From the NCBI GenBank assembly GCA_951406725.2, contig OX597816.1, positions 155,992,001 through 156,056,000 of the forward strand: 64,000 nt of DNA. The letters run 5' to 3'. Source of the DNA: Octopus vulgaris. Taxonomy: Eukaryota. Of this stretch, positions 11,995-12,330 are shown one piece after another. A program made the position numbers and the translations under genes. The notes beneath the pieces are model-generated. The model searched no databases. It had not been told where the DNA came from and saw nothing but the letters and a program-made list of their open reading frames with translations. Within the stretch, counting starts at the first letter, position 1. Each line of letters opens with the position of its first letter.

Positions 11995-11997
<3 letters not shown>

Positions 11998-12319
11998 ATA
12001 AATATTAGGGAATAAATCAAAATTTACAGGAAAACCAGATTTAGGATTAAATCCAATTATATAGTAAAATATTATAAAATATTATTAGAAAAACACTATT
12101 TTGAAAACAAACAGGAAAGACTTAATCAATACATAAATTTTATAATAGTCAAACGACCAGATTTCAGGTGGACTCCAATAAGTCAAAACTGACTTATTGA
12201 AGTCCACCTGAAGATTGTCGATCAAGACAGGAAACAATTGTAGTGGCGGTTTTTTTGATATAATTTATTGATTAAGTCTTTCCTTGTTTGTTTTGCAAAA
12301 TAGTGGTTTTGTTCTAATA

Positions 12320-12330
<11 letters not shown>
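11995..12330. mobile_element. Inverted pair of PLE-type pLTR fragments inside (TA)n
   Basis: 12073-12140 pairs with 12262-12329, and 12163-12185 pairs with 12190-12212. The right arm contains the complete hammerhead, while the left arm has lost most of it. (TA)n lies on both sides. Confidence 0.8.
12204..12246 (+). ncRNA. Minimal type I hammerhead ribozyme, complete core
   Basis: Stem I CCAC (12204-07)/GTGG (12243-46), CTGAAGA (12208-14), stem II TTGTC-gatcaa-GACAG, GAAAC (12231-35), palindromic AATT, GTA with predicted cleavage after 12242. Confidence 0.88.

Follow-up and report, generated by a model that had tools for sequence, protein, structure and literature searches.

The insertions of Penelope-like elements (PLEs) take a characteristic form that has already been published. 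In the parts of Craig et al. 2021 (PMC8557442) used here, they are described as carrying an inverted, 5'-truncated copy at the 5' end, a one-sided tail of 30-40 nt and a hammerhead ribozyme near the 3' end, and as targeting (TA)n. The same parts already list hammerhead-bearing, (TA)n-targeting PLEs for Octopus (Hydra-1_Obim), and describe the role of PLE hammerheads as unclear. The sections consulted of a survey by Cervera and De la Pena 2014 (PMC4209133) state that the minimal hammerheads found in truncated PLEs mostly occur singly, that there are sometimes dual ones on opposite strands 100-700 bp apart, and that PLE minimal hammerheads are inactive as monomers and show low activity as dimers; no cephalopod is named in the examined part of its Fig. 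S3 list. For the element Poseidon PAc of the green anole, the excerpts available of Frangieh et al. 2024 (PMC11167929) trace the tail to two internal starts of reverse transcription, and report a ribozyme that is protein-assisted and whose cleavage is unnecessary for insertion in vitro. A related class, the non-LTR retrozymes, is defined in the passages at hand of PMC7229834 and bioRxiv 10.64898/2026.07.22.740005 by head-to-tail units, a hammerhead in each of these, and circular RNAs. In Octopus vulgaris, 31 recently active Penelope-like families have been recorded (PMC13282606), and the sections of that paper available to us leave ribozymes unmentioned.

Here we analyse a small, (TA)n-flanked fold-back island with a hammerhead motif, located in a 64-kb stretch of the Octopus vulgaris genome (the window, in whose coordinates all positions are given). 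We regard it, with a probability of about 0.8, as a dead and heavily 5'-truncated insertion of a high-copy PLE, in which two 3' ends stand head-to-head in (TA)n. The island is bounded on the left by a (TA)n tract of 48 nt (11947-11994), the likely insertion target, and on the right by one of 60 nt (12326-12385). Its core is an inverted repeat of 249 bp (12077-12325), which folds far more stably than expected by chance (z = -12.4; 0/100 shuffles as stable). Arm alignment delineates a left arm at 12077-12185 on the minus strand, which is an inverted, 5'-truncated copy of the same 3' end that forms the right arm. The latter (12190-12325, plus strand), defined by arm alignment and public contigs, is a sense, 5'-truncated copy of the family 3' end, and the head-to-head junction between the two constitutes the 4-nt loop of the fold-back (12186-12189). 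Beyond the left arm the inverted copy has a one-sided 3' extension of 82 nt (11995-12076, minus strand), which lacks a pairing partner and includes a predicted 11-bp hairpin (12033-12058). The island therefore consists of a pair of 3' ends that meet at their 5' sides, each facing out into (TA)n. The original prediction had correctly described a fold-back of ~260 bp with (TA)n on both sides, a ribozyme in the right arm about 17 nt downstream of its centre, and no ORF: the ribozyme begins about 16-17 nt after the loop, and the island contains just two stop-to-stop frames of 58-59 aa, neither with a Pfam match.

The two arms are not mirror images of each other. While 98/106 aligned bases are identical, each arm has separate deletions. 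The left arm is without about 28 nt of the ribozyme, comprising stem II, the GAAA, helix III and the cleavage site, so that its hammerhead remnant is restricted to the 5' strand of stem I together with CUGAA (12163-12171). The right arm ends earlier than the left copy on the 3' side, and about 12 nt following its ribozyme have been deleted from it separately. A segment at the left-arm deletion junction (12156-12179) is 75% alike over 24 nt to the extension hairpin (12034-12057), a likeness that could reflect a template switch or chance. The only matches of the island to Rfam are sub-threshold ones of microRNA type (E<=10).

The hammerhead is a 43-nt motif of type I at 12204-12246 on the plus strand, with the very string originally reported. 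It combines a 4-bp stem I (12204-07 with 12243-46), the core elements CUGAAGA (12208-14) and GAAA (12231-34), which correspond to the CUGANGA + GAAA core, a 5-bp stem II with a basal U.G (12215-19 with 12226-30), and a helix III formed by a perfect 8-nt palindrome (12234-41). The NUH site is the triplet GUA (12240-42), with a predicted cut after A12242. As a monomer, helix III amounts to 2 bp and a 4-nt loop, and the duplex of two molecules has a computed energy of -6.4 kcal/mol; the palindrome points to a ribozyme that would act as a dimer. A strict hammerhead descriptor matched the 64 kb once on both strands, at this motif, and had 0 matches in 40 dinucleotide-shuffled windows. A relaxed descriptor gave 2 matches in the window and 1 across 40 dinucleotide shuffles; the second of the window matches (at 437, minus strand), with a 3-bp stem I and a very long loop, is at chance level and was set aside. 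No Rfam hammerhead model matched the motif at the gathering threshold, nor did any at E<=10. Folded by itself, the 43-mer is no more stable than its own shuffles (z 0.13).

We compared the motif with those of described PLEs, within the excerpted parts of the respective sources. Like the minimal hammerheads of 2014 (PMC4209133), it is of type I with a 4-bp stem I, a CUGANGAH core, an extra base after A9 and a palindromic helix III. It differs from them in that the G10.1-C11.1 pair of their PLE consensus is absent, its place being taken by a U.G or a 1x1 mismatch, and in that the Schistosoma families have a longer stem II. The same pair is also missing from most Hydra-clade rows in PMC8557442. 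With the Hydra-clade PLEs the octopus locus shares the (TA)n target (given for 26/27 Hydra entries in File S1), a hammerhead in the last 100-200 nt, a short stem I, an additional base flanking stem II on either side (by our reading of File S2, in 19/25 Hydra families), and a helix III that starts with AC (25/25 families) and has almost no loop. The entry Penelope-13_HM, moreover, is recorded as having an inverted 5'-truncated copy at its 5' end, with a hammerhead on both strands. In contrast to these elements, the octopus island has no RT or endonuclease ORF, bears an 82-nt extension, and has lost the ribozyme of its inverted copy. Its hammerhead sequence is also unlike that of Hydra-1_Obim from octopus, indicating that the island belongs to another family. 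Features of Poseidon PAc that resemble the island are an AT-rich target and a hammerhead in the pseudo-LTR, but PAc belongs to another clade and host, and its hammerhead contains the start of the ORF (PMC11167929, as excerpted), whereas an ORF start of that kind was not identified at the octopus locus. Insertion in (TA)n and a hammerhead near the 3' end are typical of Hydra, though not exclusive to it. Within the PLE reading we favour the Hydra clade with modest confidence, an assignment drawn from ribozyme layout and target only, since Pfam searches of the window frames found no ORF of the hammerhead family in this copy.

Outside octopus, the exact hammerhead pattern had 0 occurrences in viral contigs and 0 in metagenome contigs. 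Relaxed patterns recovered 40 and 38 loci, of which 1/78 formed both stems. None (0/78) had a match to the Neptune-type protein P0121 discussed below, and none resembled the octopus element beyond short words. The single locus with both stems (L004, 126-165, minus strand) is a metagenome hammerhead of no relation to the island; it shares the palindromic helix III, has a 5-bp stem I and a 6-bp stem II, and lies in a context that does not look like a PLE.

The genomic setting of the island bears on what the ribozyme could do. On the minus strand, a metabotropic glutamate receptor 8-like gene has a coding exon at 13304-13540 (Pfam ANF_receptor, E 8.5e-28), which is 100% identical to Octopus vulgaris and 95% identical to O. 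sinensis receptor proteins. A GT donor closes this exon at about 13305; an upstream exon is situated near 55094, and a search of 1-13300 gave no later exon of the receptor gene. This arrangement would place the island in the next intron, some 1 kb from its start and in antisense to the host gene. As the host gene is on the minus strand, its pre-mRNA would carry only the broken left copy in sense: the copy that is sense to the gene has lost the ribozyme core, while the antisense copy is intact. The minus strand of the island contains no CUGANGA and folds into the same long hairpin. It had been proposed that the left arm, being complementary to stem I and the CUGAA core, could sequester the ribozyme in a read-through RNA. 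The complementarity holds, the left arm pairing with 12190-12212, a segment that takes in CUGAA as well as the 5' strand of stem I, and computation for plus-strand RNA bears out the effect, the probability of the ribozyme fold being 5e-2 for the 43-mer, 2.6e-4 for the right arm alone and 3e-15 for the whole island. However, any inverted copy would have this effect, and the likely read-through RNA is the pre-mRNA of the minus strand. In that pre-mRNA, 12077-12325 may form about 100 bp of dsRNA, a possible substrate for A-to-I editing.

The wider family was examined by aligning the contigs of 4 runs (of 24 listed) on 11985-12340 at 80% likeness. Among the 24 listed runs none was marked as RNA, and all shares were 0.22 or less. 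The alignment yielded 1,525, 53, 753 and 36 aligned contigs per run, none of which spans the whole stretch. Summed contig depth is not equivalent to copy number, but the number of distinct contigs means a large, diverged, high-copy family. When the 3' extension (12009-12020) is compared with the ribozyme (12213-12236), the extension has the greater depth in 4/4 runs: 5.2e5 against 2.9-3.2e5 in the run X21, and 3,705 against 871-905, 6,533 against 4,607-4,685 and 1,797 against 358-511 in the others. Such a rise toward the 3' end is what 5' truncation would lead one to expect, and the high depth over the 82-nt extension indicates that this is family sequence present in most copies, although it is longer than the published PLE tail. 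At 11991, inside the TA tract, the depth persists at 23-35% of the next bin, suggesting that many copies end in TA-like sequence. The copies sought as a check on the original prediction thus exist in all four runs, and together with the flanks and the Hydra-like layout they support the PLE origin and (TA)n targeting that it had put forward. At 12204-12246 no alternative letter reaches at least 5% in the 4 runs, rarer variants being unlisted, and stem covariation was not seen. No second member of the hammerhead family was found in the 64-kb window.

The contigs also contain four further fold-back junctions that differ from 12186-89. In X21, 6 contigs have loose ends before 12186 with a median of 9 nt, the longest forming a 19-bp arm with a 10-nt loop; in the run X6, 3 contigs have loose ends at the same point and an inverted arm that starts at stem I. 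The joints 12137>12224, which retains half the ribozyme, and 12081>12288, which retains none, are each represented by one contig with a short side (20 and 25 nt), and are weak alone. The centre of the fold-back is consequently not fixed but varies between copies, and the combination of a 5'-truncated copy, an adjacent inverted 5'-truncated copy and variable junctions is that of a PLE insertion. Loose ends before 12199 reveal a second type of upstream sequence, the upstream region thus differing between subfamilies. Loose ends at 12256-12266, together with 12-nt gaps, show that the left arm has the common post-ribozyme sequence and that the deletion in the right arm is private. The junction stretch 12153-12164 has no contig cover in 4/4 runs, bearing in mind that contigs show presence and not absence.

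These data bear on several other accounts of the island. Long hairpins are a recognised class of sequencing and assembly artefact, and a local inverted duplication after insertion would give a similar structure. Nevertheless, we attach almost no weight to either possibility: the arms differ at 8/106 bases and by their separate deletions, and the left arm holds family sequence missing from the right one, namely the 82-nt extension and the stretch marked by loose ends at 12256-12266, which implies that the right arm in its present form was not its template. A TA-inserting MITE that captured a hammerhead would be short and non-coding, with a long inverted repeat and TA flanks, as seen here, and MITEs are annotated in O. 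vulgaris (PMC13282606, in the portion seen). Such elements, however, have symmetrical terminal inverted repeats and a fixed length, whereas the octopus island has asymmetrical termini with 82 nt unpaired, remnants of the ribozyme in both arms, a variable centre and a depth that rises toward the 3' end, making this origin very improbable. The original prediction had further likened the island to retrozymes. Animal non-LTR retrozymes are likewise non-coding and of low GC, with a type I hammerhead and a probable reliance on PLE proteins; they are known as PLE derivatives with dispersed monomers (PMC7229834; bioRxiv 10.64898/2026.07.22.740005, as excerpted), and the length of about 330 bp would suit a monomer from tandem arrays giving circular RNAs. 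Yet the octopus copies are head-to-head with one ribozyme broken, the window has no second unit in head-to-tail orientation, and no joint or loose end among those listed from the contigs links the 3' end back to the upstream side of the ribozyme. Given also a stem I of just 4 bp, we consider a retrozyme monomer highly improbable, and this part of the prediction is not sustained.

Fold-backs of the same build but without a ribozyme are also found in the window. Of the non-repetitive islands that lie between (TA)n tracts, 52 in number, 5 form strong fold-backs (z 17-79), while 2 (44965 and 45882, z about 7) are marginal and were set aside. In two islands, 10232-10526 and 21280-21371, one end is flush with a (TA)n tract and a one-sided extension is present, of 41 nt in the first and 38 nt in the second; neither has a hammerhead match. 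This occurrence of same-build islands with and without a ribozyme suggests that PLE insertion produces both kinds in the octopus genome. They are relevant to the proposal, implicit in the original prediction, that the island is a dedicated ORF-less fold-back element which moves as a unit and retains its left arm to switch the ribozyme off. The pairing of the left arm with stem I and CUGAA, with its reduction of the ribozyme fold to 3e-15, would agree with this, as would a roughly tenfold drop in summed X21 depth immediately upstream of the hammerhead, from 1.9e5 to 2.4e4, and the position of 2/4 of the other junctions within about 15 nt, from which short copies might be common. But the subfamily differences upstream, marked by the loose ends before 12199, also account for the drop in depth, the fold is disfavoured even without the left arm (2.6e-4), and the host pre-mRNA reads the opposite strand. 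With junctions that vary among copies, and with ribozyme-free islands of the same build occurring twice in the window, we judge a dedicated element to be improbable.

The insertion of a truncated PLE pair can be outlined as a series of steps, in which endonuclease nicking, target-primed reverse transcription from internal starts, early stopping and inverted joining are taken over from the PLE literature. The GIY-YIG endonuclease of the parent element would have nicked (TA)n, and reverse transcription would have begun near the 3' terminus of the RNA and halted early, just 5' of the hammerhead. A second short copy might then have been joined in inverted orientation, with a different start point or a later loss leaving one copy 82 nt longer, after which the arms would have diverged and most of the left ribozyme would have been lost. 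In the parent, the ribozyme was presumably part of a pseudo-LTR, and in a tandem transcript one copy would pair with the other via helix III. At the octopus locus, where the only partner is inverted and broken, the modelled ribozyme is likely to be without a partner and without function.

By itself, the locus is one more truncated PLE pair of little importance. The absence of the ribozyme from the host-sense copy is a lead, although a single case proves nothing. A more far-reaching version holds that PLE hammerheads cut RNA in vivo, so that intronic copies of this family, supposed to number many thousands, persist only if the host-sense ribozyme has been deleted or is locked by an inverted partner, and that the family might in addition be a Hydra-type element without an ORF, whose copies start just upstream of the ribozyme; we think this unlikely. 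The high copy number of the family and the long introns of octopus would allow a test of such in vivo cleavage by strand bias. More practically, (TA)n-flanked fold-back islands of octopus can pass for MITEs or microRNA hairpins. A literature search, in which subscription papers, Repbase and Dfam were not included, found no description of the hammerhead family, and three short family words are absent from the supplement of PMC8557442, where line breaks could hide a word. The family is probably uncatalogued as a ribozyme carrier.

The window contains several other pieces of PLEs. The Pfam search took in 213 stop-to-stop frames: out of 682 that reach at least 45 aa, 212 were kept as being at least 55 aa long and not of low complexity, and one was added. 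It gave one strong match, to the receptor exon, a weak GIY-YIG match at 8472-8708, and no RT. In the protein P0121 a Cys-rich linker precedes a weak match to GIY-YIG (E 0.014), a combination that fits the description of Neptune in the excerpted text of PMC8557442. An ORF end at 50695-50909 is 84% identical to P0121 and is followed by a 3' UTR at 51162-51336. Residues 248-283 of P0121 also match the minus strand at 50699-50592, which represents an inverted truncated copy. The region 50592-51326 as a whole has the appearance of a Neptune-type PLE end, consisting of the GIY-YIG C-terminus, 3' UTR and tail, followed by (TA)n; a possible decayed hammerhead near 51085-51116 failed the descriptor. 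The island 10232-10526, which is 89% identical to this 3' UTR, is an ORF-less fold-back of two 3' ends of the Neptune-type family with arms 89% alike, and 21280-21371 is a 53-nt hairpin with its 38-nt extension on one side. Any likeness of the hammerhead family to the Neptune-type 3' UTR of the window is weak and not significant: the best score of 6 comparisons was reached by 2/300 shuffles, and nhmmer gave no cross-match.

Further scraps of the endonuclease region of PLEs, both decayed, are found at 8514-8860 (plus strand), with a 61% match to P0121, and at 34941-35340 (plus strand), which has no Pfam match and which we take to be Poseidon-like from its motifs. Two near-identical C-terminal ORF pieces at 25401-25940 and 41221-41631 (plus strand), also without a Pfam match, presumably resemble the 3' end of a LINE, judging from a motif. 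Adjacent to the hammerhead island and flush with its left (TA)n tract is a GC-richer fold-back of 181 bp (11766-11946), unrelated in sequence, with 87 nt between it and a short TA run on its left and only sub-threshold microRNA-type matches in Rfam; it may be another stacked insertion or a MITE. Finally, the inverted ends at 50064-50140 and 50530-50609, which surround about 400 bp of microsatellites and adjoin the Neptune-type inverted arm, look like those of a small DNA transposon.
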